64,000 nucleotides of DNA from NCBI GenBank assembly GCA_963674965.2, contig CAXXFL010000004.1, positions 160,001-224,000 of the forward strand, read 5' to 3'. The stretch comes from a bacterium (GTDB lineage: Bacteria; RBG-13-61-14; DATKZS01). Positions 3,064-53,491 of this stretch are shown here, in pieces. How positions within the stretch are numbered: the stretch's first letter is position 1; every line of letters starts with the position of its first letter. Position numbers and translations under genes: made by a program. Under the pieces are notes generated by a model that worked only from the letters and a program-made list of their open reading frames with translations, was not told where the DNA came from and ran no database searches.

Positions 3064-4104
3064 ATGATTGAGGTAGAAGGAATCAGCAAGAGTTTCGGCG
3101 TGGTCAAGGCGGTTGACGACGTCAGCTTCAAGGTGGGCAAAGGGGAGGTCGTGGGTTTCGTTGGTCCCAACGGCGCCGGCAAGAGCACGGTGATGAGGAT
3201 ACTGACCTGCTACCTTCCGCCCGACGCGGGGGAAGCGAAGATAGCGGGCCTCGACGTTTTCGACGACTCGCTCGAGGTCCGAAGCAAAATCGGCTACCTG
3301 CCCGAGAACGCCCCCCTTTACCTGGACATGGAAGTGGACGACTTCCTGGACTACGTGGCCTCCATCCGGGGCATGAAAGGCCAGGAAAAGACCGAGGCCA
3401 TCGGGAGGGTGATAGCGCAAACGGGCCTGGCCGACGTCCTGAAAAAAAGGATCGGCGAGCTCAGCAAGGGCTACCGCCAAAGGGTGGGACTGGCCCAGGC
3501 GCTTATCCACGACCCGGAGATACTCATCCTCGACGAGCCGACCTCGGGTCTTGACCCCATCCAGATCAAGAACTTCAGGGGCATGATCCGGGACCTGGCC
3601 AAGGACAAGACCATCATCCTCTCCACCCACATCCTGTCCGAGGTCGAGGCCGCCTGCGAGAGCGTGATCATGATAAACCGCGGCAGGATCGTGGCCCGGG
3701 GCAACGTCGAGTCCCTCAAAAGTAAAAGCGCCCGGAGGAATTTTCACCTCATGCTGGCCCGGGGCCCTCGCGAGAAGATCGAGAGCTCCCTCAAGACCCT
3801 CGACGACGTCAAGGGATTTACCCTGCTCGGCGAGGAGAGCGGGCTCCTGCGCTATGAGGTCGAGGCCCGGGACGGCGTAGCTTTAGGAGAGCAGCTTTAC
3901 AGGTTGGCGGCGGACGGCCAGTTCTCCCTGGCCGAACTGAAAAGGGACGAGGTGGACCTGGAGGGCGTTTTCGCCGAGCTGGTGGCCGGAGACGAGGAAT
4001 TCCTGGCCCAGCGCCGCAAAGAGCGGGAGCTGGCCGAGGCCGAGGAGAATGAGGTGGGATCGGACGGCGATGAAGACGAAGAGGAGGAGACCGATGAGGA
4101 TTGA
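3064..4104 (+). CDS. ABC transporter ATP-binding protein, GldA-like
   Basis: GPNGAGKST, LSKGYRQR, ILILDEP; acidic C-terminal tail. Confidence 0.92.
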   Translation: MIEVEGISKSFGVVKAVDDVSFKVGKGEVVGFVGPNGAGKSTVMRILTCYLPPDAGEAKIAGLDVFDDSLEVRSKIGYLPENAPLYLDMEVDDFLDYVASIRGMKGQEKTEAIGRVIAQTGLADVLKKRIGELSKGYRQRVGLAQALIHDPEILILDEPTSGLDPIQIKNFRGMIRDLAKDKTIILSTHILSEVEAACESVIMINRGRIVARGNVESLKSKSARRNFHLMLARGPREKIESSLKTLDDVKGFTLLGEESGLLRYEVEARDGVALGEQLYRLAADGQFSLAELKRDEVDLEGVFAELVAGDEEFLAQRRKERELAEAEENEVGSDGDEDEEEETDED

Positions 4105-4149
4105 CGGCGGTCCGAGCGGCAATTCGGTTGTCCGGGAGGTACGGGCAAG

Positions 4150-4872
4150 ATGATTCGAGTCTGGGCGATTTTCAAAAGAGAGTTCATGGGGTATTTCAAC
4201 TCCCTGGTGGCCTACTTTTTCCTTGTCCTTTTCTTCCTGGCCGTGAACATGATTTTTATCCGGCTCAGCTTCTTCCAGACGCGGGTGGCGAACATGAAGG
4301 ACTACTTCGAGTTCTTCAAGATGGCCATGTGGCTTTTCCTTCCCGCGATCACCATGAAGATGTGGGCCGAGGAGAAGAAGATGGGGACCCTCGAGTTGCT
4401 CATGACCATGCCGGTCAAGGACGGCGAGGCCGTTTTAGGCAAGTTCATGGCCAGCCTGGGCTTTCTGGCCCTGGCCCTTGTCCTTTCCTTCTTGACCATA
4501 CCCGTGGCCATCGAGATGGCTGGAGATCCCGACTGGGGACCCATAATCGGCGGATACCTGGGACTGTTACTGCTGGGGGCGACCCTTATCTCCATCGGAC
4601 TGGCCATCTCCAGCATGACCGAGAACCAGTTCATAGCCTTCATCCTGACCAGCATCATCACGCTGGTCCTCATGGCCTGCTATGAGCTCAGCCAGCTTAC
4701 GCCTCTTCCCTCCTGGTTGTCCACCTTTATCATGTTCATCGACGCGGGCGAGCATTACACTAACTTCTCGAGGGGCATCATAGACAGCCGCGACCTGATT
4801 TATTATCTGTCGATCATCGGGCTAGCCCTTTTCCTTAATTACCGGGCCGTGACCAGCCGGCGGTGGAAGTGA
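4150..4872 (+). CDS. ABC-2 permease, GldF-like
   Basis: Multiple TM helices; WAEEKKMGTLELLMTMP and RGIIDSRDLIYYLS motifs. Confidence 0.9.
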   Translation: MIRVWAIFKREFMGYFNSLVAYFFLVLFFLAVNMIFIRLSFFQTRVANMKDYFEFFKMAMWLFLPAITMKMWAEEKKMGTLELLMTMPVKDGEAVLGKFMASLGFLALALVLSFLTIPVAIEMAGDPDWGPIIGGYLGLLLLGATLISIGLAISSMTENQFIAFILTSIITLVLMACYELSQLTPLPSWLSTFIMFIDAGEHYTNFSRGIIDSRDLIYYLSIIGLALFLNYRAVTSRRWK

Positions 4873-4885
4873 GGGGGGAATAGTT

Positions 4886-6532
4886 ATGGCTCATAAAAAA
4901 AGCGTGGCTTATAACACCGGGTCGCTCATTTTGCTCGTGGCGGTAATCGGGGCCGTCTTCGTGGTTAACTTTCTTTCCGACAAGGGATTTACCCGGATCG
5001 ACCTTACCCGCAACAAGCAATTCACCTTGAGCGACTCGACCAAGAAACTGCTCAAGGACCTGCCCGACATCGTAAACGTAAGGGCGGTTTACAGCTCGAA
5101 TATACCGGCGCCCTGGAACCAGGTCACGGGAGAGGTCCAGGACCTTTTGCGCGAGTATAAAGCCAACGGCAAGGGCAAGTTCGTTCTCAAGATGGAGGAC
5201 CCGGTGGGCGACGCCGAGCTTCAGGAAGACCTGGGCAAGATCGGCATAAACCCCGTGGCCCTTCCCGTAAGAGGGCTTGACCAGGCCTCGACCATAAAAA
5301 TCTGGGCCGCCATCTATATTCAATACAGGGACAAGTCCGAGACCATTCCCTACGCCTTCTCGACCGAGACCCTCGAGTACGACCTGACCACGGCCATCGA
5401 CCGGCTGACCTCGAACGAGCTGGTCGAGGTCGGCCTGTACAACGCCGACGGCCCTCAGCGCAACCTTATGGATGAATTCGGGACCCTGACCGACGCCCTC
5501 AAAAAGAGCTACCAGGTGGTCGAGGTCCCGAATGAAGAGGGCAAGATCGGCGACGCGGTCAAGGTGCTGCTGGTTATAAGCCCCTTCGGCGCGACCGACG
5601 TGGACCTCTACAATATCGACCAGTTCATCATGCGGGGCGGCAAGGCCATCTTCCTGGTGGACGGCGCCAGGGTCATCCTTCAGCCCGGCCAGTTCGGCAC
5701 GCCCATGCCCTTTTACGCCATGGCCATGAACGAGCAAATGGACTCGATAGGCGGAATGCTCCAGCATTATGGAGTAAAACGCAACTACGACCTGGTCCAG
5801 GACAAGCCCTTCATGGACTACCCGGTTCTGGGCCCGCTTGGCCGCGAGTACCCGCTTTTTCCGGTCATCGAGCTGACGGGAGAGGGCAAGGAGGAAAACC
5901 CCATTACCCAGGGGCTGGACTTCCTGGTCTTCACCTGGGCCAGCTCGCTTGACGTATCGGGCGCTCCCGACTCGGTCAAGGTCACCAGGCTGGCGGTCAC
6001 CTCCAAGGACTCCTGGATACAGGCGGGCCAGCAGCTCATGGTCGATCCCATGACCGAGGCCATGCCCCCCCTCCCGATCGGGGGAATGGGCCCGGCGAAA
6101 AGGGACCTGGCCGTCCTGCTCTCGGGCAAGTTCAAGAGCTATTTCGAGGGCAAACCCGCGCCCACGCCGGAGGAGGGCGACTCGGTGGCCCCTCCCGACC
6201 AGTCGGCCAGAAGCGACGAGAGCCCGGAAACGGACGTCATGGTGGTGGGCTGCTCCCAGTTCGTGTCCAACAACGTGCCCATCGACGTCTCGCATAACGT
6301 CGGATTCATCGTCAGCGCCGTCGATTGGATGGCCGGCGGCAAGAAGCTGTCGGACATCAGGAAACGCAACGTGAGCGCCAAGCCCATCGACGACCTGACC
6401 ATTGGCAAGGCCGTCATGATCGGCCTGGTGATGCCCCTTCTCGCCCCGGCCCTGGTGGTGGTCTTCGGCCTGGCCAGGTACGGAGTAAGAATGGGAAGAC
6501 AGAAAAAATTCCTGGAGAGCGTCGAGCCATGA
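4886..6532 (+). CDS. GldG-like ABC auxiliary protein
   Basis: RIDLTRNKQFTLSDST, EYDLTTAI, IDQFIMRGGK; N- and C-terminal TM helices. Confidence 0.88.
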   Translation: MAHKKSVAYNTGSLILLVAVIGAVFVVNFLSDKGFTRIDLTRNKQFTLSDSTKKLLKDLPDIVNVRAVYSSNIPAPWNQVTGEVQDLLREYKANGKGKFVLKMEDPVGDAELQEDLGKIGINPVALPVRGLDQASTIKIWAAIYIQYRDKSETIPYAFSTETLEYDLTTAIDRLTSNELVEVGLYNADGPQRNLMDEFGTLTDALKKSYQVVEVPNEEGKIGDAVKVLLVISPFGATDVDLYNIDQFIMRGGKAIFLVDGARVILQPGQFGTPMPFYAMAMNEQMDSIGGMLQHYGVKRNYDLVQDKPFMDYPVLGPLGREYPLFPVIELTGEGKEENPITQGLDFLVFTWASSLDVSGAPDSVKVTRLAVTSKDSWIQAGQQLMVDPMTEAMPPLPIGGMGPAKRDLAVLLSGKFKSYFEGKPAPTPEEGDSVAPPDQSARSDESPETDVMVVGCSQFVSNNVPIDVSHNVGFIVSAVDWMAGGKKLSDIRKRNVSAKPIDDLTIGKAVMIGLVMPLLAPALVVVFGLARYGVRMGRQKKFLESVEP

Positions 6533-7599
6533 AACCGAAAAACGCGATAATCCTGTTGGCCATCGTGGCGGCCCTGATCGGGGCCATCGCGATCTACGAG
6601 TTGGGCATAAAGCCCTCGGGCGAGGAAAAGGAGAAAAAGGACCTCTTACTGTTCCCGGACCTTGACCTCGAGTCGGCGGACGCGATCGAGATCAAGTCGG
6701 GCGACACGGCCGTCACCCTGGTCAAGGCGGGCGACACGGCCTGGGCCATCCAGGGCGACGGGTTTAACGCCGACCCCGACGCGGTGCAAAAGGCCCTGGA
6801 CAAGCTTAAGGAATTGAAGGCCGCCAACGTGACCTCCCGCTCCAAGGACAGCCACGCCGATCTCGGGGTGGACGAGAAGGGGACCCAGGTCAAGGCCAAG
6901 GCCGGCGACAAGACCCTGGCCGCCCTGGTGGTGGGAGAGCAGGGAACGAGCTACGCCACGAGCTTCGTAAGGAAGCTCGACTCCGATGACGTCTACATGA
7001 TCTACGACAACGTAAAGAACGTCTTTACGGCGAAGCCCGAGACCTGGCGCGACAAAAGGATATTCGGGGCCGAGCTTGACGAGGTGGTCGAGATCACCCT
7101 CTACCAGAGGCCGGAAAGCCAGGAAGGCGACACGGGAGCGGCCGCCGCTGACGGCGACACGGCCGAGAAGGGGCCCGCCGACTACGTCGAGTCCCATTTC
7201 AAGAAGAACGACAAGGACGAGTGGGTCAAGGTCGAGGAGGGGACGACCGCGGAAACGGCTTTCCCCGAAGCGGACTCGATCGCCCGGGCCCTCGCCACCA
7301 TGCGCGCCTCGGGGTTTGACGACAAGATCGGCTTGAAGGACGCCGGACTCGATCCCCCCTCCAAGAAGGCCGCGTTCAAATTAAAGGACGGAAGGACCTA
7401 CGCCCTGCACGTGGGCAAGGAGGAGGAGTCGAAATATTTCGTCAGCCGGCCGGACAAGGGCAAGGTGCTTTTAGTCTACCGCTATAACGTAAGCAACGCC
7501 TTCAAGGACAAAAAGGAGGAGAAAAAGGAGGCTCCCGGCATGGGTTTCGATCCCGGCTCGCTCCTCCCCCCTCCATCTTTGGGACCGGAAAACGAATAA
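6529..7599 (+). CDS. DUF4340-like membrane-anchored protein
   Basis: ATG overlaps the upstream stop (ATGA); N-terminal TM; WRDKRIF and GLDPP motifs; usual fourth gene of GldAFG-like operons. Confidence 0.75.
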   Translation: MKPKNAIILLAIVAALIGAIAIYELGIKPSGEEKEKKDLLLFPDLDLESADAIEIKSGDTAVTLVKAGDTAWAIQGDGFNADPDAVQKALDKLKELKAANVTSRSKDSHADLGVDEKGTQVKAKAGDKTLAALVVGEQGTSYATSFVRKLDSDDVYMIYDNVKNVFTAKPETWRDKRIFGAELDEVVEITLYQRPESQEGDTGAAAADGDTAEKGPADYVESHFKKNDKDEWVKVEEGTTAETAFPEADSIARALATMRASGFDDKIGLKDAGLDPPSKKAAFKLKDGRTYALHVGKEEESKYFVSRPDKGKVLLVYRYNVSNAFKDKKEEKKEAPGMGFDPGSLLPPPSLGPENE

Positions 7600-7617
7600 C
7601 CCCTTCCCGCCAAACCA

Positions 7618-7656
7618 CGCGCCTGGATCCGACGCAAAAAGGCCCAGGCGCGTTTT
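7618..7656 (+). terminator. Intrinsic terminator
   Basis: CGCGCCTGG...CCAGGCGCG followed by TTTT. Confidence 0.5.
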
Positions 7657-7749
7657 ACATTATCATGGATTGCCCTGGCCGTTGCATAAACTTGGAGCCT
7701 GGTCTACCCTCATGGGCAAATATTCATTTTAGCAAAAAGGAGTGGCGCC

Positions 7750-8214
7750 ATGCCAAGGGTGGATATCGATCGGGAGTCGCCCGATTTCGCGATCCCCGAC
7801 CATGAGGGACGGGAAGTAAGGCTTTCCGATTTTCGGGGCCGGCCCGTGGTAATAATCTTCAATCGGGGCTTTGTCTGACCCTTCTGCCGCAGGCACATGG
7901 CGCAGTTGCGCCAAGACAAGGACAAGTTCGAGGAGCGCGGGGCCCAGGTCATCGCCATCGGTCCGGAGAAGCCCCGGGACTTCGCCAAGTTCTGGGTCTC
8001 CCACGACATGCCCTTTATTGGCGTCCCCGACCCGGAACACAAGGTGGCCGACCTTTTCGGGCAGGAGTTCAAGCTGTTCAAACTCGGCCGCATGCCCGCC
8101 CAGGTGGTGGTGGATAAAAAGGGAATCATCCGCTTCGCCCATTACGGATCATCCATGGCCGACGTCCCCGAGAACAAGGAGATTCTAGAGATCATCGACC
8201 AAATGGAGGATTAG
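7750..8214 (+). CDS. AhpC/TSA peroxiredoxin-like selenoprotein (UxxC), in-frame TGA at 7876-7878
   Basis: AGGAG RBS, ATG 7750, MPRVDIDRESPDFAIPDHEGREVRLSDFRGRPVVIIFNRGFV-U-PFCRRHMAQL..., continuing in frame into ORF 7897..8214; selABC in the same window. Confidence 0.9.
7879..7913 (+). promoter_or_regulatory. Putative bacterial SECIS element
   Basis: Hairpin TGGCGC-AGTT-GCGCCA (7898-7913); G-containing apical loop about 25 nt after the UGA. Confidence 0.7.
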
Positions 8215-8518
8215 GCGGGAAACGCTTTATCTTCCATCAAGAGGATAGTTCCAATATCCGGTTACCCATGCCATCCATACGGCGCAAATCTCCGGGTTGG
8301 CGGCATTAGTATCCGGGTGACGCGGTTTCAATACTACTGATGCCTTAACCTATGTTTTTTAATAAATCTCAGTAATCTCATAGAATGGGAGACCGAAAAA
8401 TTCCTTGCAAAGGCGGATGAAGTCGGGATCGAGGCCATTATGCCGGCCGCCTATGTAATTTTTCCGCCGTCGAACTCCAGGGCAAATCTAAACGTCAATC
8501 CCCCTGGCACTACCGCGC

Positions 8519-8835
8519 TTATTGGTCTCCAAAACCCCTTAACCTCGACCGGCGGATTTGTAAAATCGAATAGGCGACCAAGCGGAGGTTGGCGTGACGC
8601 TTGATGGCATAGACCACCAAGGTCCGCTCCGGCTTCATCTCGACGTCGTCGGTGGTGAAAAGCACGTTCATTTCGCCGAGGGTGGCGCTGGGGACCATCA
8701 CCCTGACGAAGGCCTTGATGGCGGCGGTCTTGCCGCAATTCCTGGCCTTGATTTTTTCGCGCTTCGATCTTTTCAACCACGGTCGTTGTGGGCCGTACTT
8801 TTTGCCCCGCTTGGGAGGACGTCCCGGTCGGGATA
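8519..8835 (-). pseudogene. Transposase remnant (IS4/IS701-like)
   Basis: Fragment ...PGRPPKRGKKYG...LFTTDDVEMKPERTLVVYA resembles DDE transposase GRPRKYG and L.TTD...Y..RW segments; no complete ORF. Confidence 0.45.
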
Positions 8836-8945
8836 AATGGGGATAACCTCAACTTGGGACCCCATAGTATGCCCATCAAACTCCCCATCTAATAATGGGG
8901 CCAAGGCAAGGCGCGTCCCGTTTTGGGCGGCAACGCTTCAAGCTA

Positions 8946-8974
8946 TTGACATTTGTCATGTATATTAATAGAGT
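8946..8974 (+). promoter_or_regulatory. sigma70 promoter with palindrome over the -35
   Basis: TTGACA-17 nt-TAGAGT; inverted repeat TGACA-TT-TGTCA. Confidence 0.55.
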
Positions 8975-9021
8975 TAACTAGTATGATCTTTCAATTGAGG
9001 ACACGGCTCAGGAGGGAAGAT

Positions 9022-9948
9022 ATGTCGAAAAAATCGATTATTATTGCAATGGCCTGCTTCCTGTGGATTTCTTCCATCGGCGGTTGCCCCCGCGGCAAGG
9101 ACCCCAGCGGCAACGAGCCGCCCGAGGTGCAAAAGGTCACCATCTCCCCCAAGTCCGCCATGCCCGGTACCGTGCTTCGCTGCTCGGCCACCCTCTTCGA
9201 TCAAGAGGGAGACGCGGTGGACCTTGCCTACGAATGGTACGTGAACGGTACCCTGATCCCGGAGGCCAAGGGAATCGATTTCGACACCAACGATTACGTT
9301 GCCGGAGACAAGATTTACGCCAAGGTCTGTCCCAGGGAAAAGGAGTCGGGCCGGACGGGAAAGTGCGACGAATCCACCAAAATCACCCTGGGGGAACTGC
9401 CCTCGTTGACGTTAAAAGGGGTACGCATCGAGCCCGAGCAGATTACGATAGCCGCCGACGCTGAAGCGGTGGTCGATTACGGCGACTTGGACGAAATGGA
9501 CGTGGACGACATATATTACCAGTGGTACGTGAACGGCCAGCTCCTTGAGGACCTGGATGAGTTCGAGTCGACCCTGTCCACGGACTACTTTGCCACGGGC
9601 GATAAAATCCAGGTCAAGGTTTGCACGGACGGGGCCTTCGACAGCGGGACCACCACCGCTTCCGCCATCTACACCGTGCTAAACAAGCCACCGGTGTTCG
9701 TGGGAGACGCGGAGTTGGAATGGGACGGGGAAACCCTTTATCTTACCCTCGAGGCCGAGGACCCGGAGGGGGACGACCTCGAGTGGGTCCTTTTCGCGGG
9801 GCCGCCGGGGGCTTACATCGAGGACGGGGTGGTGTATATCGACCGCGCCAAGGTCAAGCCGGGAAAGTATCGGCTCGAGGTCGGGGTTTCGGACGAGTAC
9901 ACCAAGGACTACAGCCGATATAAATCCACAATAACGGTCCCCAAATAA
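9022..9948 (+). CDS. Lipoprotein with Ig-like repeats
   Basis: GGAGG RBS; signal ending IGGC; two Y.WYVNG repeats; AEDPEGD..GPPG Ig motif. Confidence 0.75.
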   Translation: MSKKSIIIAMACFLWISSIGGCPRGKDPSGNEPPEVQKVTISPKSAMPGTVLRCSATLFDQEGDAVDLAYEWYVNGTLIPEAKGIDFDTNDYVAGDKIYAKVCPREKESGRTGKCDESTKITLGELPSLTLKGVRIEPEQITIAADAEAVVDYGDLDEMDVDDIYYQWYVNGQLLEDLDEFESTLSTDYFATGDKIQVKVCTDGAFDSGTTTASAIYTVLNKPPVFVGDAELEWDGETLYLTLEAEDPEGDDLEWVLFAGPPGAYIEDGVVYIDRAKVKPGKYRLEVGVSDEYTKDYSRYKSTITVPK

Positions 9949-9971
9949 ACCGCGGCCGCCGCGGCCGATCG

Positions 9972-10007
9972 GCGCCCTCGGCGGACGCGAGGGCGCTTTT
10001 TATTTTT
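9972..10007 (+). terminator. Intrinsic terminator between convergent genes
   Basis: GCGCCCTCG...CGAGGGCGC followed by a T-rich tract. Confidence 0.7.
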
Positions 10008-10730
10008 TCACTCCCGGTATTTCTCGCCGGCCTTGTACATTTCCAGTCTCTCTTTCGCTCCCTCGGCGTGTTCCGTCATCTGCATGGGAACGGCCTTGGA
10101 CTGGTACTCGACCGCCTTTTGGAAATCACCGATCTCGGCGTAGGCGGCGGCCAGGGTATCGACCACGGCCGCGTTTTGCCACTTGGTTATTTCACAGGCC
10201 CTTTTCGCCATCTCGACCGCTCTTACCCCATCCCTCATGGAGTCCTGGGAGGAAGTGGCCAGGAGCCAGGCGAGGTCGTTCAGGCAACCGGACTGCTTGT
10301 CGTTAATCTCGACGCACCTTTCGAGGTTCGCTTTGGTTTCCTCCATATTACCCTTTTTCCTGAAAACATATGCGCGAGAAAGGTAAGATATCTCATTTCG
10401 AGGATTCATCTCGATCATCTTCTCGGCGTCCTCCATGGCTTCATCCAGCCGGCCCGTCTCGATCCTGGCCCCGCATCTGCCGTGATAGGCCAAAAAGAAA
10501 TCCGGCTTGTATTCCATGGCCTTTGTAAACTCCTTTTCCGCTTTCTCGAACTCCTTTTTGCCAAGCAGCTCGAAGCCTTTTTTCGCGTGCCAATCGGCAA
10601 TTTTTCCCCTTGCCTCTTCAGGTGACGGCGGAAGGCAGGAGGAGACAATAGTAAAGATCAAAAGCAGAATTATTAGAAAGCCGAGGTTTCCCAAACCCTT
10701 TCGTAACGAGATTGTTGCATTGCCTTTCAT
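10008..10730 (-). CDS. TPR-repeat lipoprotein
   Basis: Lipobox-like VSSC; TPR helices; NDLAWLLAT...DTLAAAYAE.GDF motif. Confidence 0.85.
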   Translation of the reverse strand: MKGNATISLRKGLGNLGFLIILLLIFTIVSSCLPPSPEEARGKIADWHAKKGFELLGKKEFEKAEKEFTKAMEYKPDFFLAYHGRCGARIETGRLDEAMEDAEKMIEMNPRNEISYLSRAYVFRKKGNMEETKANLERCVEINDKQSGCLNDLAWLLATSSQDSMRDGVRAVEMAKRACEITKWQNAAVVDTLAAAYAEIGDFQKAVEYQSKAVPMQMTEHAEGAKERLEMYKAGEKYRE

Positions 10731-10860
10731 TATATCCTCCCCGCTTGTCCGCCTTGGAATAATTACCTTTTCCTCAGTCCCATATTTTTATTACGCCCGC
10801 CGCGAGTTTTCAAATCGCGCCGCCTCTTTTTACTTAAGCCATGGGGACTCTTCTTTTAAC

Positions 10861-10889
10861 TTGCAATCTAATTCCAATGTTGCTAGATT
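10861..10889 (+). promoter_or_regulatory. Putative sigma70 promoter for dodecin
   Basis: TTGCAA-17 nt-TAGATT with extended TGn. Confidence 0.45.
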
Positions 10890-10953
10890 TATGCGGTCGG
10901 CAAGGGGCCATCTATAAAGGCCATGTTTAATCGATCGAACAAGGAGGACATTG

Positions 10954-11169
10954 ATGACCGAAAGCACCTACAAGATTATTGAATTGGTTGGAAGCAGCCC
11001 GAAATCCTGGGAAGAAGCCGCCTCGAACGCCATCGCCACCGCCTCGAAGAGCTTAAGGGACCTTCGCATCGCGGAGATTTCGGAACTCGATCTTAAAATC
11101 GAGGACGGAAAGGTTATGGCATACAGGGCCAGGGTTAAAGTAAGCTTCAAATACGTTGGCAAAGAATAA
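10954..11169 (+). CDS. Dodecin family protein
   Basis: TYKIIELVGSS.KSWEEA...YRARVKVSFK; AGGAGG RBS. Confidence 0.92.
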   Translation: MTESTYKIIELVGSSPKSWEEAASNAIATASKSLRDLRIAEISELDLKIEDGKVMAYRARVKVSFKYVGKE

Positions 11170-11192
11170 TCCAATACTCGATCGAAGTCGCG

Positions 11193-11224
11193 GCGGGCAA
11201 GATGTTTTTGCCCGTTTTTTTATT
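11193..11224 (+). terminator. Intrinsic terminator
   Basis: GCGGGCAA...TTGCCCGT followed by a T-run. Confidence 0.65.
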
Positions 11225-11451
11225 TGACGTCCCGATCGAAATCATCGCCTTTGCGTCTTTTGATTGAAGACCCATGAATCGGTTCCAAGTATGAAAGACT
11301 CGAAAACCCAAGGGCCATGTCCGCTGAAAATAAAATTAAACCAACGATTTCAATAAAATGCATGATCTTCCCCGACTCCGATAAGCGCGTTAAGACGGAA
11401 TAAGTTGAAAACCGGCGGAAGCTCATTTGTCATTTGGCCTCCAGCGCTTGG

Positions 11452-11480
11452 TTGACATATTCCCTATTTGGGATTATCAT
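11452..11480 (+). promoter_or_regulatory. sigma70 promoter for tRNA-Lys
   Basis: TTGACA-17 nt-TATCAT. Confidence 0.7.
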
Positions 11481-11506
11481 AGTTATTCACGTCAAACAAA
11501 ACATAT

Positions 11507-11582
<76 letters not shown>

Positions 11583-11932
11583 TTTATGACGGTTTGCGGA
11601 CATGGGTCCGTTCGGCAAAGAATACCAGATTTCCACTGTCAACCTATCGTGAATCAGGATCTTCCCCACCATGGACACCCCGAGGATAACGTCGTTTGGA
11701 CTCCCGGCTCCGCCTGGAGAACTCTCGCGGTCCTGAAAGCCGAGCCACGAAAGACCGCCGCCAAACGGGAAAAATGAAAAACGGGGCTTTATGACTTTAT
11801 AATCTCGCGTCACAAGCAGGACCGAACCTGATGGCAAGAAGGGCGAAGGAAGGAGACATATTCCCGCTACGCTCTTTGAGTCTCGTGGTGATATCTTTGA
11901 TTAGATCAGGGGCCGATTCGAAGGCGCCGGAG

Positions 11933-12466
11933 TTACCCGTCCGTGCCGATAAGCTTCATGCCCGTTTTGTTTCTTTTGGCCAGTTCCTGGTAGATTTTCT
12001 TGCCCCAGGTCCATATCTGGCGGTCCAGGTCCCTGATCGGGCCCTTGACCTCGACGGGCACGCCGTGGGCTATGACCTCGGGCGGGACTTCCTGTTTCGA
12101 GCGGACCAGTCCCATCTCCCCGATGATGGTCCATTTGCCCACCTTGGCGTAGTCGCTGACGGTGGAGCGCATGCCGAGCACGGCGTAGTCGTCAATAAAG
12201 GCGTTGTGGATCATGGCCCCGTGTCCGACGGTGACCTCGCGTCCAAAGGTCGTCTTGTCGTTGGGCCGGGCGTGAACGATGACGCCCTCCTCGATGGCGG
12301 TGCCTTCGCCTATCTCGATGGTCCCGTAGTCTCCGCGGAGGATGGCGCCCCACCCGACGTAGCAATGGGGGCCCACGCGCACGTCTCCTATCAGCGTGGC
12401 GGTGGGAGCGATCCAGGCCGTGGGATCGATTTGGGGAACTCTTCCCTCGAAATCGTAAATCGGCAT
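11933..12466 (-). CDS. Gamma-carbonic anhydrase family (hexapeptide repeat) protein
   Basis: IAPTATLIGDVRVG, AILRGD, VTVGHGAMIH. Confidence 0.92.
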   Translation of the reverse strand: MPIYDFEGRVPQIDPTAWIAPTATLIGDVRVGPHCYVGWGAILRGDYGTIEIGEGTAIEEGVIVHARPNDKTTFGREVTVGHGAMIHNAFIDDYAVLGMRSTVSDYAKVGKWTIIGEMGLVRSKQEVPPEVIAHGVPVEVKGPIRDLDRQIWTWGKKIYQELAKRNKTGMKLIGTDG

Positions 12467-47012: not shown

Positions 47013-47114
47013 AAGAAAAACGAGTCGATTTTGCGGCGGGCGAGTTTAAGGATAATCTGAAAGCGCCGCCATATGGAGCGGTTAGCCCGAAACTTCCCCT
47101 GGAGATATCGAAGA

Positions 47115-48518
47115 ATGTCACGGATAAATTTACTCGAACAAGTTAACCTCGAGGCGGTCCTGGCCAAGGCCATGTCCCGGGGCGGCGAATACGCGGACAT
47201 ATTCGCCGAGGAAAAAACCACCACCCTGATCGAGATCGAGGCCGAGAGGGTCGAGAGACTGGTGCAGGGATCAAGGAGCGGAGCGGGGGTCAGGACCATT
47301 CACGACCACCGCGTGGCTTACAGCTATACCGACTCCGTCGAGAAGTCGTCCCTTCTCGACTGCGCCTTTGTGGCCTCGAGGGCGGTCAAGGGGGGAAAAA
47401 GCGTCAACTCGCCCGCCAAGGCCGGGGCATGGAGGAACGAGAGGATGAAGGTACTCGAGCCTCCCTCTTTGGTTTCCATTCCCGACAAGCTCGAAATTTT
47501 ATGGAAAGCGGAGAAGGCGGCGCGAAAGGCGGATAAAAGGATCGTTCAGGTTCGCGTGCTTTTTTCCGACCAGACGAGAAGCATCGCCGTGGCCGACTCG
47601 GGGGGGGGAAGAACGGCCGACTCCTCCACTTATATCGTGTTCTACGTAATAGCCGTGGCGGGAGACGAGTCGGGCATCCAGGTGGCCCACGAGGCCCTGG
47701 GCGGGAACTCGGGCATGGAGATATTCAAGGAGCGCGGCCCCGAGGAACTGGCGGTCCGGGCCGCTCTCCGGGCGGCGGCCGCCCTCGAGGCCAGGCCCGC
47801 TCCCGCGGGGGCCATGCCGGTGGTGCTTTCGTCCGAGGCCGGGGGGACCATGGTACATGAGGCCGTCGGGCATGGCCTCGAGGCCGACCTGGCCGAGCAG
47901 GGGCTGAGCGTGTACCAGGATATGATCGGCCAGAGGGTCGGCTCGGACCTCGTCACCGTGGTGGACGACGCGACCCTGCCGGGCAAGCGCGGGTCATTCA
48001 ACTTCGACGACGAGGGGACCCCCGCGCAAAGGACCGTTCTGGTCGAGAAAGGCATTTTGAAAACCTTCATGTACGACTACAGGATGGCCGCGAAGACCGG
48101 GAGCCAAAGCACGGGTAACGGAAGACGCGAGTCCTATATGTACCCGCCCATCGCTCGCATGACCAACACCATCATCGAGCCGGGCCAGTCGGACCCGGCC
48201 TCCATTTTAAAGTCGGTGGACAAGGGCCTCCTGGTCCTGCGCATGGGAGGAGGAGAGGTCAACACCGTTAACGGGGACTTCGTCTTCGAGGTCGAGGAAG
48301 GCTACATGATCGAGGCCGGCGAGAAAGGCGAGCCCGTAAGGGGGGCCACCCTTACCGGCAACGGTCCCCGGGTCCTGATGGACATCGACATGGTGGGAAG
48401 CGACCTCGGGTTCGGAATCGGCACCTGCGGCAAGGATGGGCAGGGGGCCCCCGTGTCCGACGCCCAGCCCACCCTCCGGATACCCGAGATCATCGTGGGG
48501 GGAAGGCTCGAGGAGTAG
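47115..48518 (+). CDS. tldD: TldD family metalloprotease
   Basis: HEAVGHGLEAD, DDEG, RMTNT, CGKDGQ..PV. Confidence 0.93.
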   Translation: MSRINLLEQVNLEAVLAKAMSRGGEYADIFAEEKTTTLIEIEAERVERLVQGSRSGAGVRTIHDHRVAYSYTDSVEKSSLLDCAFVASRAVKGGKSVNSPAKAGAWRNERMKVLEPPSLVSIPDKLEILWKAEKAARKADKRIVQVRVLFSDQTRSIAVADSGGGRTADSSTYIVFYVIAVAGDESGIQVAHEALGGNSGMEIFKERGPEELAVRAALRAAAALEARPAPAGAMPVVLSSEAGGTMVHEAVGHGLEADLAEQGLSVYQDMIGQRVGSDLVTVVDDATLPGKRGSFNFDDEGTPAQRTVLVEKGILKTFMYDYRMAAKTGSQSTGNGRRESYMYPPIARMTNTIIEPGQSDPASILKSVDKGLLVLRMGGGEVNTVNGDFVFEVEEGYMIEAGEKGEPVRGATLTGNGPRVLMDIDMVGSDLGFGIGTCGKDGQGAPVSDAQPTLRIPEIIVGGRLEE

Positions 48519-48566
48519 GACGTCTTTGCCGCCCAAGGACCGTCATGATAACCTGATATAATCATT

Positions 48567-49997
48567 ATGAATCAAGAAAATCGAAAGAATGGCCCGTCTC
48601 CCGCGGCGAGCCTGGTGGCGTTTTTTTCCTCGACCAAGCTGACCCTGGTCCTTTTGGCTTTGATAGCGTTCCTGTCCTTTTTCGGGACCACGGGCAGGGA
48701 ATTTAACCTTATCGGTTTCCATCTGGACTTCAGGGGAGACACCCTTTACCGCTCGATACCTTTTCAACTGCTGCTGGGGCTTCTTTTCACCAACCTTCTG
48801 GTCTGCACGATCGACAAGCTGCCGGGCGCGTGGAAGCGGTTTAAAATGGACTCTGGTCCCGAGCCGCCCGCTCCCCCGGCCTCGGCCGACCAAGTGGTGA
48901 CCTTTCTAAAAGCGGACATTGACGACGCCCTTTCCAAGGCCGAGAAATATTTTTTCGGCCAAGGCGCGAAGCCGATAAGGGCGGAGCGCGAGCTGTTCAG
49001 GAAGGTGGGCCCAGGCAAAGACAAGGGCAATGATGGCGAAAAAGAAAAGGCCGCGCCGGAGAAGGTCCGGGCCCGCGTTTCCTTTTTGTCCCGGGGCGGG
49101 ATCAGCGTTCTGGGTCCGCAAATAACTCACGTGGGGATACTGATACTTATCGTCGGCGGCATCATCGGGGGACGGGGACATTTCGAGGCGGAGATGAAGC
49201 TTCGTCCGGGCGAGCAAAAGAGCGAGGCGGGCGTGGCCGAGGCCGATTCCATGCGCCCCGTCGACCTGGGCTTCACCGTGCGTTGCAACGACTTTCAGGT
49301 GACTTATTACGACGACTCCCCCATGGCCAGCGACTATCTTTGCGACCTTTCCATACTGGCGGACGGGCGCGAGGTAAAGAGGCACGTGATCGAGGTGAAC
49401 CGTCCACTCCACTATAAGGGGTACGGGTTCTACCAGGCCAAATACGATTATGAGCCCACCATACGGTACCTGGCCAGGTCCCTGCAGACGGGTGACACCC
49501 TGAGCGTTGTGGCTCCGCTGGGAGAACCGGTCGAGCTTCCCGGCGGCACCTACATGGCCATCGACTTCGAGGAGAAGACCGTGGGCATGGGCCGCGACCT
49601 TGGCCCCAGCCTCACTCTGGGATGGATGAAGGACGGCCAGATGAAGGGCACGGCCAGGCTTTTCCAGAACTTCCCCGACCGGGACCAGGCCAAGGTGGAA
49701 GGCTACCAGATATCCTTCGTGGCCATGCCGGGGCAGTACGCCACCATTCTTCAAATTATCAAGGACCCGGGCATTCCACTGGTCTGGACCGGGTGTTCCC
49801 TTTTGGTGCTGGGGGTGATGGTCTCGTTTTTCATCCGCCACCAGCGCGTCTGGATCGTCGCGTCGAAAAGGGGAGACGGAGTAATCGTCGAGATAGCGGG
49901 CCGAGCGAAAAAGGGCCAGGCCCTTTTCGCGAAGAGGCTGGCGGAGTTGGCCGACGAGCTGGTCAAAGAGAACGCGAAGGCGGCCCCTCCCGAATAG
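48567..49997 (+). CDS. resB: Cytochrome c biogenesis protein ResB/CcsB-like
   Basis: FFSSTKL, NLLVCT, THVGILI, EVNRPLHY.GY.FYQ, KDPGIPLVW.G. Confidence 0.85.
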   Translation: MNQENRKNGPSPAASLVAFFSSTKLTLVLLALIAFLSFFGTTGREFNLIGFHLDFRGDTLYRSIPFQLLLGLLFTNLLVCTIDKLPGAWKRFKMDSGPEPPAPPASADQVVTFLKADIDDALSKAEKYFFGQGAKPIRAERELFRKVGPGKDKGNDGEKEKAAPEKVRARVSFLSRGGISVLGPQITHVGILILIVGGIIGGRGHFEAEMKLRPGEQKSEAGVAEADSMRPVDLGFTVRCNDFQVTYYDDSPMASDYLCDLSILADGREVKRHVIEVNRPLHYKGYGFYQAKYDYEPTIRYLARSLQTGDTLSVVAPLGEPVELPGGTYMAIDFEEKTVGMGRDLGPSLTLGWMKDGQMKGTARLFQNFPDRDQAKVEGYQISFVAMPGQYATILQIIKDPGIPLVWTGCSLLVLGVMVSFFIRHQRVWIVASKRGDGVIVEIAGRAKKGQALFAKRLAELADELVKENAKAAPPE

Positions 49998-50028
49998 CCG
50001 GTAAAAGACGAGTATTTCAAGGTGAGCC

Positions 50029-51426
50029 ATGCTTAATACGTTGCCGGGAATAGACCGTATAATCGAGCTCGAGGAGATTCGCGAGCTTTTAGGCGAGTAT
50101 TCCCACGAGGTGGTGGTGGGCTGGGTCCGGGACGCGGTGGAAGACCTCCGCTCCGGCCTGCTCGGCGGACGCGAGTACCCCCTGGGCGAGGACGGAAAGA
50201 TCGCGCGAGAGACCGTGGCCGCCATGGTCCAGGCCCGCCGCGCTTCTCTGACCAGTCCGTCCCTTCGCAAGTGCGTCAACGCCACGGGCGTGGTGGTACA
50301 CACGAACATGGGCCGGTCGCCCCTGAGTCCATATTTAATGGAGGCCATGAAGGGGGTGCTGGGCACTTACTCGAACCTCGAGTACGACCTGGAAAAGGGA
50401 AAGCGAGGCTCGCGTCACTCCCACCTCGAGCGCCTCATCCGCCGGGTCACGGGCGCCGAGGCCGGTTTCGCGGTCAACAACAACGCGGCGTCGGTATTGG
50501 TGTCGCTCAATACCCTGGCTCGCGGCGGCGAGGTGATCGTCTCGCGGGGCGAGCTTATCGAGATAGGCGGCAGCTTCCGTATCCCGGAGATCATCGAGAG
50601 CGGCGGCGCTCGTCTTCGGGAGGTGGGCACGACGAACAAGACCAGGGTATCCGACTACGAGAGGGCCATCGGTCCGGAGACGTCTCTGATCCTCAAGGCC
50701 CACACCTCGAATTACCGGATACAAGGCTTCACCGAGGAGGTTTCCCTCCAGGACCTGGTCAGGCTGGGACAAGAGCGAGGGGTCCCGGTCATGATGGACC
50801 TTGGCTCCGGGCTCCTCATCGACCTCGAGCCCTACGGCATATTCGGGGAGGACCCGGTCCAGAAGTACGTGGCCATGGGCCCGGACGTTATCACCTTCAG
50901 CGGCGACAAGCTGCTGGGCGGCCCGCAGGCCGGCTTTATCGTCGGGCGCGCCGAGCTGGTCTCGAGGATACAGAAGAACCCCATGGTCCGGGCCCTTAGG
51001 GTGGGCAAGATAACCATCGCCGCCCTCGAGGCCATGCTGACGGCCTACCTAAGTCCCGCCGCCATCACCGAGAAAATCCCCACCCTCAGGCTCCTGACGA
51101 GGCCCGCGCCTCGCATCCGTTCCCAGGCGGCTCGAGCGGCCGCGATGATCCGGGAGCGCTGGCCCGAGGCCAAGGCTCGGGTCCTTCGCGACGAGGCCTT
51201 CGCCGGCGGCGGGTCTTTGCCGGCGGTGCCCCTGCCGACCTACGTGGTCGAGATCGAGGCGGACATGGACGCCGACGGGCTGCATTGTCTTTTCAGGTCG
51301 GCTCCGGTCCCGGTGGTGGGCCGGGTGAGGAAGGGCGCGTTCTGCCTGGATATGCGGACCATCCTGCCCGGCGACCTGGCTCACGTTCTGGCCGCCGTGG
51401 ACATAATCAGGGAGTCGGGGAAATAA
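50029..51426 (+). CDS. selA: L-seryl-tRNA(Sec) selenium transferase
   Basis: NATGVVVHTNMGR, NNNAA, EIGGSFRIP, FSGDKLLGGPQAG. Confidence 0.97.
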   Translation: MLNTLPGIDRIIELEEIRELLGEYSHEVVVGWVRDAVEDLRSGLLGGREYPLGEDGKIARETVAAMVQARRASLTSPSLRKCVNATGVVVHTNMGRSPLSPYLMEAMKGVLGTYSNLEYDLEKGKRGSRHSHLERLIRRVTGAEAGFAVNNNAASVLVSLNTLARGGEVIVSRGELIEIGGSFRIPEIIESGGARLREVGTTNKTRVSDYERAIGPETSLILKAHTSNYRIQGFTEEVSLQDLVRLGQERGVPVMMDLGSGLLIDLEPYGIFGEDPVQKYVAMGPDVITFSGDKLLGGPQAGFIVGRAELVSRIQKNPMVRALRVGKITIAALEAMLTAYLSPAAITEKIPTLRLLTRPAPRIRSQAARAAAMIRERWPEAKARVLRDEAFAGGGSLPAVPLPTYVVEIEADMDADGLHCLFRSAPVPVVGRVRKGAFCLDMRTILPGDLAHVLAAVDIIRESGK

Positions 51427-51429
51427 TCC

Positions 51430-53382
51430 ATGGCCCGCTTGCCGACCCTCATCATGGGCACGTCGGGCCACGTTGACCATGGCAAGACCACGCTGGTCAA
51501 GTCCCTCACCGGCGTGGACCTCGACACTCTTCCCGAGGAGAAGGCCAGGGGGCTGACCATCAACCTGGGCTTCACCTCCTTCGATACCCCCTCCGGCCAC
51601 CGGATAGGCGTGGTTGACGTGCCTGGCCACCGCAAGTTTGTAAGGACCATGCTCTCGGGCGCGCACGGGTTGGACTTCGTGCTTTTCATCGTGGCCTGCG
51701 ACGACTCGGTCATGCCTCAAACTCGGGAGCACCTCCAGATACTGAGACTGTTCGGAGTCAAGACGGGGATAGTCGTTCTTACCAAGGCCGACCTGGTCGA
51801 GCCCGAGCTTCGGGAACTGGTCGAGGCCGAGGTTTCCGAGCTGGTGGAGGGGACCTTTCTCGAGCGCGCGCCCATGGTGGCGGTCAGCTCGGTCACCGGC
51901 GAGGGCATGGGCGAGCTGATTGAAGCCATCGACAAGGTTGCCGGCGACTTGAAGCCGCGGGAGAGGGGGGCCTATTTTCGCATGTTCGTGGACCGGTCGT
52001 TCACGGTGGCGGGCGCGGGCACGGTGGTAACGGGCACGGTGCTTTCCGGGTCGTCCTCCCCGGGGGACGAGGTCGAGATACTGCCGGGCGGGCACCGGGC
52101 CAGGGTCCGCAAGATCGAGAGCCATGGGGAGGCGGTGGACCGGGCCCGGGCGGGGCAGCGCGCCGCCGTAAACCTTCGTCTTCTTGACAAGGGCGACGTT
52201 GGGAGGGGAGACATGATCGCCACGCCCGAGGTCGTTCGGCCCACCTACATGGTGGACGTTCGGCTCGAGGTGCAGGACAATTATCCCCGTGCTCTCCAGC
52301 ACTGGACCAGGGTCAGGTTCTACGTGGGCACTCACGAGTCCTTCGGGCGGGTGGTGCTGCTCGAGAAGGACTCGGCCGAGCCGGGCGGCGGGGCGCTGGC
52401 TCAAATAAGGCTCGAGACGCCGGCCCCGGTCATGAACGGCGACCCCTTCATCATCCGGGACTTTTCCTCGAGTTGGACCATCGGCGGCGGCAAGGTCCTT
52501 GACTCCCATCCCACCAAGCACAAGCGCCGGAAGGCCCTGGCGGTGGGAGACCTGGCCCGCCGGGAGGACGGCTACCTCGAGGAGCTTATCGAGCTGGAGG
52601 CGAAAAAGACCGCTTTCTTCCTGTCCCGAAACGCCGTGGCCCTCGATCTTAACGCGCCCATGGACAGGGTGGGGGCCGCTTCTTCCGCTCTGGCGGAAAA
52701 GGGGGACGTCGTATTGCTGCCGCCCAGGAAGTCTCCCTGGATCATTCACCAGGAGGCGTGGAGGCGGCTGGTGGGCAGGATCAAGGAGTGCTTGTCGGCC
52801 CATCACGAGTCTCTTCCCCAGCTCGATACGGGTCTTTCCGAGCAGGAACTCCGCGAGAGGGTCTCCCGCGCCTCGGGGGCGAGGATCGAGGAGGAACCTT
52901 TCCATTATTCCCTGGAGAGGCTGGCCGAGGACAAGGTGCTCAAGTCGGTGGAGGCTACCTATGCCCTTTCCAGCCACGCGGCCGTGCTCGAGGAAGGAGA
53001 CGAGCAGGCCCTGGCCGCCATCCGGGCGAGCTACGTGGACTGCCCCATGACCCCGCCGGCGACGGAGGAAGTTTACGCCGGCTCCGGCTTGCCCAAGGCC
53101 GTGGTCCGCGATTTCCTCGAGCGTCTGCTCGAGGAGGGCGAGTTGGTCCGTATAAGCCGCGAGTTCATCTTTGACAAGAAGGGAGTTTCGATCGCCCTGG
53201 AAAAGGTGTTAGAATATATAAGACAAAATGAAAAAATGACGGTGGCCGAGTTTCGAGACCTGGTGGGGACCTCCCGCAAATACGCGATTCCCCTTCTCAA
53301 TTACTTCGATAATGAGGGCTGGACCGTAAGGGACGGGGATTTCAGGAAACTTGGTCACCGCCGGTTCGACGGAAAGATTTAG
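51430..53382 (+). CDS. selB: Selenocysteine-specific elongation factor
   Basis: GHVDHGKT, MPQTREH, DRSF, GQR; C-terminal winged helix SRKYAIPLL. Confidence 0.97.
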   Translation: MARLPTLIMGTSGHVDHGKTTLVKSLTGVDLDTLPEEKARGLTINLGFTSFDTPSGHRIGVVDVPGHRKFVRTMLSGAHGLDFVLFIVACDDSVMPQTREHLQILRLFGVKTGIVVLTKADLVEPELRELVEAEVSELVEGTFLERAPMVAVSSVTGEGMGELIEAIDKVAGDLKPRERGAYFRMFVDRSFTVAGAGTVVTGTVLSGSSSPGDEVEILPGGHRARVRKIESHGEAVDRARAGQRAAVNLRLLDKGDVGRGDMIATPEVVRPTYMVDVRLEVQDNYPRALQHWTRVRFYVGTHESFGRVVLLEKDSAEPGGGALAQIRLETPAPVMNGDPFIIRDFSSSWTIGGGKVLDSHPTKHKRRKALAVGDLARREDGYLEELIELEAKKTAFFLSRNAVALDLNAPMDRVGAASSALAEKGDVVLLPPRKSPWIIHQEAWRRLVGRIKECLSAHHESLPQLDTGLSEQELRERVSRASGARIEEEPFHYSLERLAEDKVLKSVEATYALSSHAAVLEEGDEQALAAIRASYVDCPMTPPATEEVYAGSGLPKAVVRDFLERLLEEGELVRISREFIFDKKGVSIALEKVLEYIRQNEKMTVAEFRDLVGTSRKYAIPLLNYFDNEGWTVRDGDFRKLGHRRFDGKI

Positions 53383-53395
53383 TCCGCGACTTAAC

Positions 53396-53491
53396 GGCAA
53401 GGATAGGGTCTGGTGGCTCTACCGGGCTTCAAACCCGGATGCGGGTAGATAAAACTGCTCGTGGCAGGTTCGATTCCTGCCCTTGCCGCCA
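53396..53491 (+). tRNA. selC: tRNA-Sec(TCA), 7/5 fold
   Basis: Anticodon loop CTTCAAA, 6-bp D-stem with TGGT loop, long variable arm, GCCA end; 13 nt after the selB stop. Confidence 0.95.

Follow-up and report, generated by a model that had tools for sequence, protein, structure and literature searches.

Prx-like (peroxiredoxin-like) proteins, also named Prx-like thiol:disulfide oxidoreductases and characterized by a UxxC motif in which U is selenocysteine (Sec), have been part of the selenoprotein literature since 2004-2005 (PMC1088965, PMC1794560, PMC13188914). The family goes back to Kryukov and Gladyshev 2004 and is listed in later papers (PMC1794560, PMC1088965, PMC9312934, PMC13188914), and it is defined operationally by pfam00578 together with a UxxC or UxxU motif, with WP_010940744.1 from G. 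sulfurreducens given as the representative (PMC9312934, PMC13188914). Here we analyzed a gene at positions 7750-8214 of a 64,000-nucleotide (nt) stretch of bacterial DNA (contig CAXXFL010000004.1, positions 160,001 to 224,000; hereafter the window), in which an in-frame TGA almost certainly encodes Sec, judging from sequence comparison. With a probability that we put at roughly 0.92, these positions form a single gene whose product is a cytoplasmic selenoprotein of 154 residues, with a peroxiredoxin fold of the BCP/PrxQ-like type and with U43-P-F-C46 as its thioredoxin-type centre. By the operational definition the predicted protein is a member of the Prx-like family. The original prediction, made from the sequence alone, had called the gene a hidden selenoprotein, a label that holds for its annotation and does not hold for the literature, where the family has long been listed.

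Direct reading of the sequence located a single in-frame TGA, at codon 43, in a frame that stays open until the TAG at 8212-8214. Translation with TGA read as U gave 154 residues containing FNRGFV-U-PFCRRH, in the context ...IIFNRGFV-U-PFCRRHMAQLRQD. The ribosome binding site, the ATG start and the continuation of the frame past the TGA, all of which had been proposed beforehand, were found in place (Table 1). The top Pfam match, AhpC-TSA (PF00578), covers residues 8-129 with an E-value of 2.3e-26 and 92.6 bits against a cutoff of 26, while the second, Redoxin (PF08534), covers residues 10-140 with 71 bits; both span codon 43, and one AhpC/TSA domain thus runs across the TGA, in keeping with the AhpC/TSA-type protein that had been proposed. 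Standard annotation cuts the gene at this codon. The list of open reading frames (ORFs) contains just two pieces of it, 7750..7878 (42 residues) and 7897..8214 (105 residues), and the public gene call for the window locus (P0002) is a protein of 102 residues starting at a TTG at 7906, inside the hairpin described below. Truncation of the window gene by standard annotation, which the original prediction had anticipated, is therefore a fact and not a guess. A search of protein databases returned 694 matches, the best 120 of which were examined; among these 120, 84 are 101-136 residues long and align solely with the query downstream of the TGA, over 58-71% of its length, with many of the 84 starting at the Met of HMAQLR. 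This pattern is the signature of a family that is routinely cut at an in-frame TGA.

Relatives of the gene were sought in genome contigs using tblastn, which identified 592, and the best 80 loci, at 53-61% identity, were analyzed. At these 80 loci the matched part of the query ranges from residues 1-154 to residues 10-153 and includes the TGA, and the homologous codon was located by a motif search that left the identity of the codon unconstrained. This revealed TGA at the homologous codon in 80/80 loci, with TGG, TGC and TGT in none. An additional homolog (48% identity, 99% coverage) was found on the megaplasmid of Thermomicrobium roseum DSM 5159 (NC_011961.1, 545266-545739; L081:2501-2974), in which codon 43 is likewise TGA and the hairpin of the window gene recurs. 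The gene table of this megaplasmid record lists only a 129-nt, 42-residue 'hypothetical protein' (WP_012643006.1), equal to the N-terminal piece. This locus was the one same-family hit among 23 plasmid matches found by tblastn, the other 22 being distant BCP/redoxin proteins at 34% identity or less, and was the only one of the 23 fetched as DNA. For comparison at the protein level, we aligned 46 sequences (alignment A1), comprising the query, all 36 full-length matches among the 120 listed and nine of the 84 short matches. Position 43 in the 36 full-length proteins is Trp in 21, Cys in 14 and Asp in one, the last of which looks frameshifted around the motif; the Trp forms are considered below. 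The 14 Cys forms are 45-57% identical to the query, and their Cys coincides with the TGA, which confirms the placement of this codon at the first Cys of a CxxC motif. The check originally proposed, that homologs should have Cys or Sec at the TGA, thus came out in favour of recoding, with Cys in 14 of 36 full-length proteins and TGA at all 80 loci and in T. roseum.

The titles of the records holding the 80 loci are approximately 57 Chloroflexota-type (chiefly Anaerolineae), seven Actinomycetota-type, five from Desulfuromonas, Desulfobacterales, Smithella or 'Deltaproteobacteria', and three from Spirochaetota or Leptospirales, with single loci from Zixibacteria, Acidobacteriota, Bacillota, Gemmatimonadota, Cytophagia, 'Rickettsiales' and one unclassified bacterium; these labels are as deposited for metagenome-assembled genomes, in which binning errors are possible, and one locus (L014, Candidatus Aquidulcis) has no placement among them.

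Past the TGA, the RNA is predicted to form a GC-rich hairpin whose 6-base-pair (bp) stem begins 19 nt, and whose loop begins 25 nt, from the UGA, in agreement with the G-containing loop at about 25 nt that had been noted from the sequence; 2 of 200 shuffles folded as well as this hairpin. The bacterial selenocysteine insertion sequence (SECIS) model given in a figure legend of a 2026 review comprises a loop of 3-9 nt, a stem of 4-16 bp, a G in the first two loop positions, a distance of 16-37 nt from the UGA and a folding energy of -7.5 kcal/mol or lower (PMC13188914, Fig. 2 legend). The window hairpin, with a loop of 4 nt whose second base, G, precedes a U, and an energy of -10 kcal/mol, lies within these limits, and the proposal of a SECIS is sustained both by its agreement with four published constraints and by the freezing of synonymous sites within it. 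When the 76 nt surrounding the TGA were aligned for the window gene and its relatives at the 80 loci (alignment A2, 81 sequences), the hairpin was paired in 98.6% of cells, the RNAalifold consensus and an explicit count of pairs being in agreement. The codons concerned are GCG for Ala51 in 79/80, CAG for Gln52 and TTG for Leu53 in 81/81 each, and for Arg54 only CGC (62) or CGT (18), such that a G-C or G-U pair is kept. Synonymous-codon entropy was accordingly near zero at A51, Q52 and L53, and 0.77 bits at Arg54, as compared to 0.77-2.33 bits at other conserved Ala, Gln, Leu and Arg codons: 1.68 bits at Ala117, 0.77-0.79 bits at Gln105 and Gln118, 1.9-2.3 bits at other conserved Leu codons, which are TTG in just 10-18 of 81, and 1.63-2.24 bits at Arg39, Arg114 and Arg128. 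As the 81 loci span 40-72% GC, base composition cannot explain these frozen codons, and the RNA, in addition to the protein, is under selection.

Between the UGA and this stem lies a second, smaller hairpin of the form UGCC-NNN-GGCA (columns 16-26 of alignment A2), which was paired in 91.7% of cells, with pairs 16-26 and 17-25 kept in 81/81 sequences, 18-24 in 79/81 and 19-23 in 56/81. Cys46, whose codon it includes, is Cys in 81/81 and TGC in 80/81, and codon 48 ends in G in 79/81 irrespective of whether it specifies Arg, Lys or Ala. The small hairpin may serve the element as a lower or auxiliary segment. A search for the composite pattern TGACC-N4-TG-N11-TGGCGCAGTTGCGYC gave a single match in the window and none in 100 shuffles; 76 of the 81 loci contain it, the other five being off by one or two bases.

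The Sec machinery genes selA, selB and selC, which the original prediction had placed in the window, were each recovered, the two proteins by profile matches and the tRNA by ARAGORN and Rfam (Table 1). The three genes lie head to tail, with the tRNA-Sec 12 nt past selB. On the same strand before selA are genes for TldD (47073-48518) and a ResB-like protein (48567-49997), forming a compact cluster that extends over 47073-53490. At Rfam gathering thresholds, the window yielded the tRNA-Sec and two other tRNAs only, and no curated bacterial SECIS family was matched. A window-wide search for TGA-interrupted frames produced 137 candidates, mostly adjacent or antisense ORFs.

To place the UxxC motif in a structural context, we examined an AlphaFold2 model of the readthrough protein built from alignment A1 (mean predicted local distance difference test score 93.3, predicted template modelling score 0.89). 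The model contains a whole thioredoxin fold, which neither the 42-residue nor the 105-residue piece does, and residue 43 is located directly before helix 44-55, placing it in the model at the usual position of the thioredoxin-fold nucleophile. The top Foldseek matches in the PDB were S. solfataricus Bcp4 (3hjp, template modelling (TM) score 0.90) and Bcp1 (3drn, 0.87) and the B. ambifaria protein 5enu (0.80-0.84), with ResA-type structures close behind. In phmmer alignments, U43 and C46 align with both Cys of the CxxC motif of ResA (4nmu, WCKPC), and against 5enu, 2ywn and 2cx3, C46 falls in the peroxidatic Cys column, U43 at the Thr/Ser and R39 at the Pro of the PxxxT/SxxC motif. These comparisons point to a peroxiredoxin fold bearing a thioredoxin-type UxxC centre. 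The N-terminus (MPRVDIDRESPDF) is hydrophilic, and direct reading of MPRVDIDRESPDFAIPDHEG revealed no hydrophobic segment, signal or anchor; the protein is thus presumed to be cytoplasmic.

On the established bacterial mechanism, SelB-GTP carrying Sec-tRNA(Sec) would bind the SECIS hairpin as the ribosome reaches UGA-43, and would deliver Sec to this codon in place of termination. From the motif, the Cys forms and the ResA and Prx alignments, we infer that Sec43, positioned at the N-terminus of helix 44-55, would be the attacking nucleophile. A selenenylsulfide between Sec43 and Cys46 would then form, and the likeliest agent of its re-reduction is a reductant of the thioredoxin type. On this scheme the protein would function as a thiol-disulfide oxidoreductase, and perhaps also as a peroxide reductase, with a disulfide or a peroxide as its substrate.

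Several observations weigh against this interpretation. The first set concerns the RNA: none of the 10 hairpin pairs has compensatory two-sided changes across the 81 sequences, although covariation and its shuffle control are uninformative here because the hairpin hardly varies; wider stretches were no better folded than shuffles (z of +1.30 for 81 nt and -1.26 for 45 nt); and the nucleotide conservation lies partly over the peptide HMAQLRQD, which is found in the Cys forms as well, so that part of it is protein-driven. Neighbouring genes offered no functional clue, since none of the 80 loci has, close to the gene, a homolog of the flanking ORFs of the window that were compared (the DUF4340 protein at 6325-7599, 8451-8888 on the minus strand, 8953-9948 and a TPR protein). 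Table 1 of the 2026 review places the family under 'predicted with high confidence' and not under 'experimentally verified' (PMC13188914). With respect to chemistry, the canonical Prx Pro and Thr are replaced by R39 and U43, giving RxxxUxxC in place of PxxxT/SxxC, and the invariant R114 lies two residues before the catalytic-Arg column of Prx, where the Arg aligns with P116 in a poorly aligned, low-confidence stretch. For these two reasons, peroxidase chemistry is uncertain.

The alternative that survives best accepts the recoding and differs on function: the protein would be a true peroxidase, in which Cys46 or Sec43 attacks hydroperoxides, and not a general thiol-disulfide oxidoreductase. 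Peroxides are reduced very efficiently by Sec, BCP/PrxQ proteins are the nearest in fold (TM 0.80-0.90), C46 aligns with the peroxidatic Cys of the three structures named above, and R114 is at least near the catalytic-Arg column. Against these stand the altered PxxxT/SxxC motif, the UxxC motif by which the literature classes the family as thiol:disulfide oxidoreductase-like, and the curated NCBIfam models, all of which fell far below cutoff: BCP (NF006960) with 53 of 140 bits, PrxQ (NF053650) with 32 of 260 and PrxU (NF040737) with 27 of 270. We regard a dedicated peroxidase as possible, with the balance of evidence tilted toward the oxidoreductase.

A second alternative denies Sec altogether and has the TGA read as Trp or another standard residue, through reassignment of the code (table 4 or 25) or through near-cognate readthrough. 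Termination at UGA is leaky when the next base is C, and TGACC stands at this site without exception in 81/81 sequences. More directly, Trp occupies position 43 in 21 of the 36 full-length database homologs noted above, and the original prediction had treated consistent Trp at this position as the observation that would count against Sec. The protein data do lean that way, whereas the DNA does not, with TGG in 0 of 81 loci and TGA in all. The discrepancy can be traced in one case: the Trp protein P0007 is 98.9% identical over 180 residues to locus L062, and its W lies over a genomic TGA (L062:1826-1828). The W of P0007 therefore stems from how the TGA was translated. All 21 Trp proteins (found within P0003-P0037) sit on contigs shorter than 5 kb, and the other 20 would be explained by a gene caller that applied a TGA=Trp table to short contigs. 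Given P0007 and the lack of TGG in 81 loci, a search restricted to proteins would raise a false alarm. In the window itself, TGA is the usual stop of the gldA-, gldF- and gldG-like, GH20 and TPR genes; the GldF profile match (positions 2-236 of 240), for instance, extends to residue 233 of a 240-residue protein that ends at TGA. Because TGA ends several well-supported genes, a reassigned code is excluded for this organism, whose window has a GC content of 51-62%. Trp at the nucleophile position of CxxC, where 14 homologs have Cys, would inactivate the redox centre, and plain readthrough would need no frozen hairpin. Decoding as a standard residue is accordingly very improbable. The least credible option is a pseudogene in which a TGC or TGT Cys codon, one base away from TGA, mutated and left fragments at most, as the public 102-residue call and the lone 42-residue 'hypothetical protein' of T. 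roseum in RefSeq/PLSDB might suggest, since 81 lineages would each have had to acquire a nonsense mutation at the same codon independently and yet retain both flanks in frame (53-61% identity in the 80 loci) and a conserved hairpin after the TGA, with Sec machinery present in the window.

Compared with described systems, the predicted Sec protein is most like the Prx-like thiol:disulfide oxidoreductase family, with which it shares pfam00578, UxxC rather than TxxU, Cys-form homologs and a SECIS just past the UGA. The family has been reported in Syntrophus, Geobacter and Desulfotalea, and relatives of the window protein are labelled Syntrophus, Smithella, Desulfuromonas and Desulfobacterales. 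It differs in that its clade, recognizable by NRGFxUPFCxxHMAQLRQD, is mostly found in Chloroflexota/Anaerolineae records and reaches no NCBIfam cutoff. The best NCBIfam match was NF040769 (SelL-related redox protein), with 85 bits (E-value 4.7e-24) against a cutoff of 120 over profile positions 2-99 of 173, and 8/8 relatives tested were also below this cutoff (55-80.5 bits). SelL is described as a Prx-like protein (PMC2398784); the redox motif lies at the same place in NF040769 and fish SelL, with UxxU in fish SelL and UxxC here. PrxU (TxxU, NF040737) shares the AhpC/TSA fold, the use of Sec and a SECIS inside the coding region; its Sec, however, occupies the peroxidatic Cys position, while that predicted for the window protein lies three residues earlier, at the Thr, and the Cys at the peroxidatic position is kept. 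The fold resembles those of BCP/PrxQ (3hjp, 5enu) and ResA/TlpA (TM 0.75-0.90, E-values 2e-11 to 7e-10) with a CxxC register identical to that of ResA, but identity is only 19-25%, the Prx Pro/Thr motif and the ResA/TlpA signal or anchor are missing, and Sec appears to be used; the ResA/TlpA model NF002854 scored 52 bits, below its cutoff of 170.

In E. coli fdhF and fdnG, the SECIS hairpin lies within the coding region, its distance 3' of the UGA is fixed, and its small apical loop contains G-U. The window element is alike in its position within the coding region 3' of the UGA and in its G-U loop, and is presumably read by SelB, but has another sequence, no evident bulged U and a second small hairpin between the UGA and the main stem.

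As no curated NCBIfam model reaches its cutoff, the clade may be a separate or sister subfamily. NCBI annotation names proteins from such models, and their absence plausibly explains why it leaves the T. roseum gene unrescued. A broader version of this idea, which we offer tentatively and consider doubtful in its full extent, is that the NRGFxUPFCxxHMAQLRQD clade forms a separate, almost exclusively Sec-using subfamily that lacks a curated model and shares a single two-hairpin SECIS (UGCC...GGCA plus UGGCGC-AGUU-GCGCCA) which hardly changes across 40-72% GC and across records labelled as at least eight phyla.

Table 1. Features of the predicted selenoprotein gene and of the Sec machinery in the window
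Feature	Positions	Strand	Basis
Shine-Dalgarno-like AAGGAG, 7 nt 5' of ATG 7750	7737..7742	+	direct sequence reading
Predicted full selenoprotein coding sequence, 154 codons including Sec43; Prx-fold UxxC redox protein	7750..8214	+	translation with TGA=U
In-frame TGA, predicted to be read as Sec43; first position of U-P-F-C	7876..7878	+	TGA conservation, Cys forms, alignments
Cys46 codon TGC, putative resolving partner of Sec43; aligned with BCP-type peroxidatic Cys	7885..7887	+	phmmer alignments
Small upstream hairpin UGCC-GCA-GGCA, between UGA and SECIS hairpin	7885..7895	+	pairing in 81 sequences
Predicted SECIS hairpin, 6-bp stem UGGCGC/GCGCCA, apical loop AGUU (7904-7907)	7898..7913	+	fold, 81-sequence alignment
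selA, L-seryl-tRNA(Sec) selenium transferase	50029..51426	+	TIGR00474, 558.8 bits vs cutoff 267.9
selB, Sec-specific elongation factor binding SECIS	51430..53382	+	TIGR00475, 378.6 bits vs cutoff 242.25
selC, tRNA-Sec, anticodon UCA	53395..53490	+	ARAGORN; Rfam RF01852, 69.5 bits vs gathering score 47

The surroundings of the gene were also surveyed. Upstream on the same strand (3064-7599) lie a gldA/gldF/gldG-like ABC transporter set (3064-4104, 4150-4872 and 4886-6532) and then the DUF4340 protein, the true start of which probably lies further downstream; all of these score below the equivalog cutoffs, and no link between the gld-like set and the selenoprotein gene was seen in the 80 loci from other genomes. 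A scan of 7500-8500 for promoters and terminators found nothing upstream of the gene, with counts at the level of shuffles. For about 700 nt past the gene (8215-8950) the GC content is lower, with 52.7% in the block 8001-12000 versus approximately 59-60% in upstream blocks; this segment has no family-matched ORF, and neither 8451-8888 (minus strand) nor 8953-9948 (plus strand) has a Pfam or NCBIfam match. Elsewhere, 19-22 of the 80 loci (e.g. L013, L025 and L027) have, downstream of the gene and on its strand, genes for a DUF4345 protein (approximately 124 residues), a DegV-family protein and a DUF1295 membrane protein, an order that is probably due to common descent within the Anaerolineae. 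In five loci another AhpC-TSA protein, longer than the first, is encoded close by, e.g. L074:826-1614 on the minus strand. A cluster of antisense ORFs seen in 43 loci was rejected as a spurious product of ORF filtering.

Taken together, our analysis does not add a new kind of selenoprotein; what the window gene adds is a new member, mis-annotated in public records, of a family predicted two decades ago. What is publicly a 102-residue fragment lacking its active site would in truth be a 154-residue selenoprotein, and since 592 relatives were found, the top 80 are all Sec forms and no NCBIfam cutoff is reached, mis-annotation across the family is probably systematic. With this many relatives in species-representative genomes, the family is large. 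Metagenomic catalogues partly record Sec as Trp, which can mislead protein-only checks of selenoprotein candidates. Three points are of some interest: the SECIS is unusually invariant across many phyla, a curated model is lacking, and catalogued proteins show an artefactual Trp. According to the 2026 review, bacterial SECIS elements often bear no mutual resemblance (PMC13188914). Were the broader subfamily proposal true, either the gene and its SECIS would have moved together by horizontal transfer more than once, or conservation of a SelB-binding element would go well past the norm for bacterial SECIS elements. In that event the element would be a candidate for a portable SECIS, and could serve as a marker in finding selenoprotein genes that are mis-annotated, by the hundreds. 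The frozen SECIS also provides a clean handle for experimental tests of the family.

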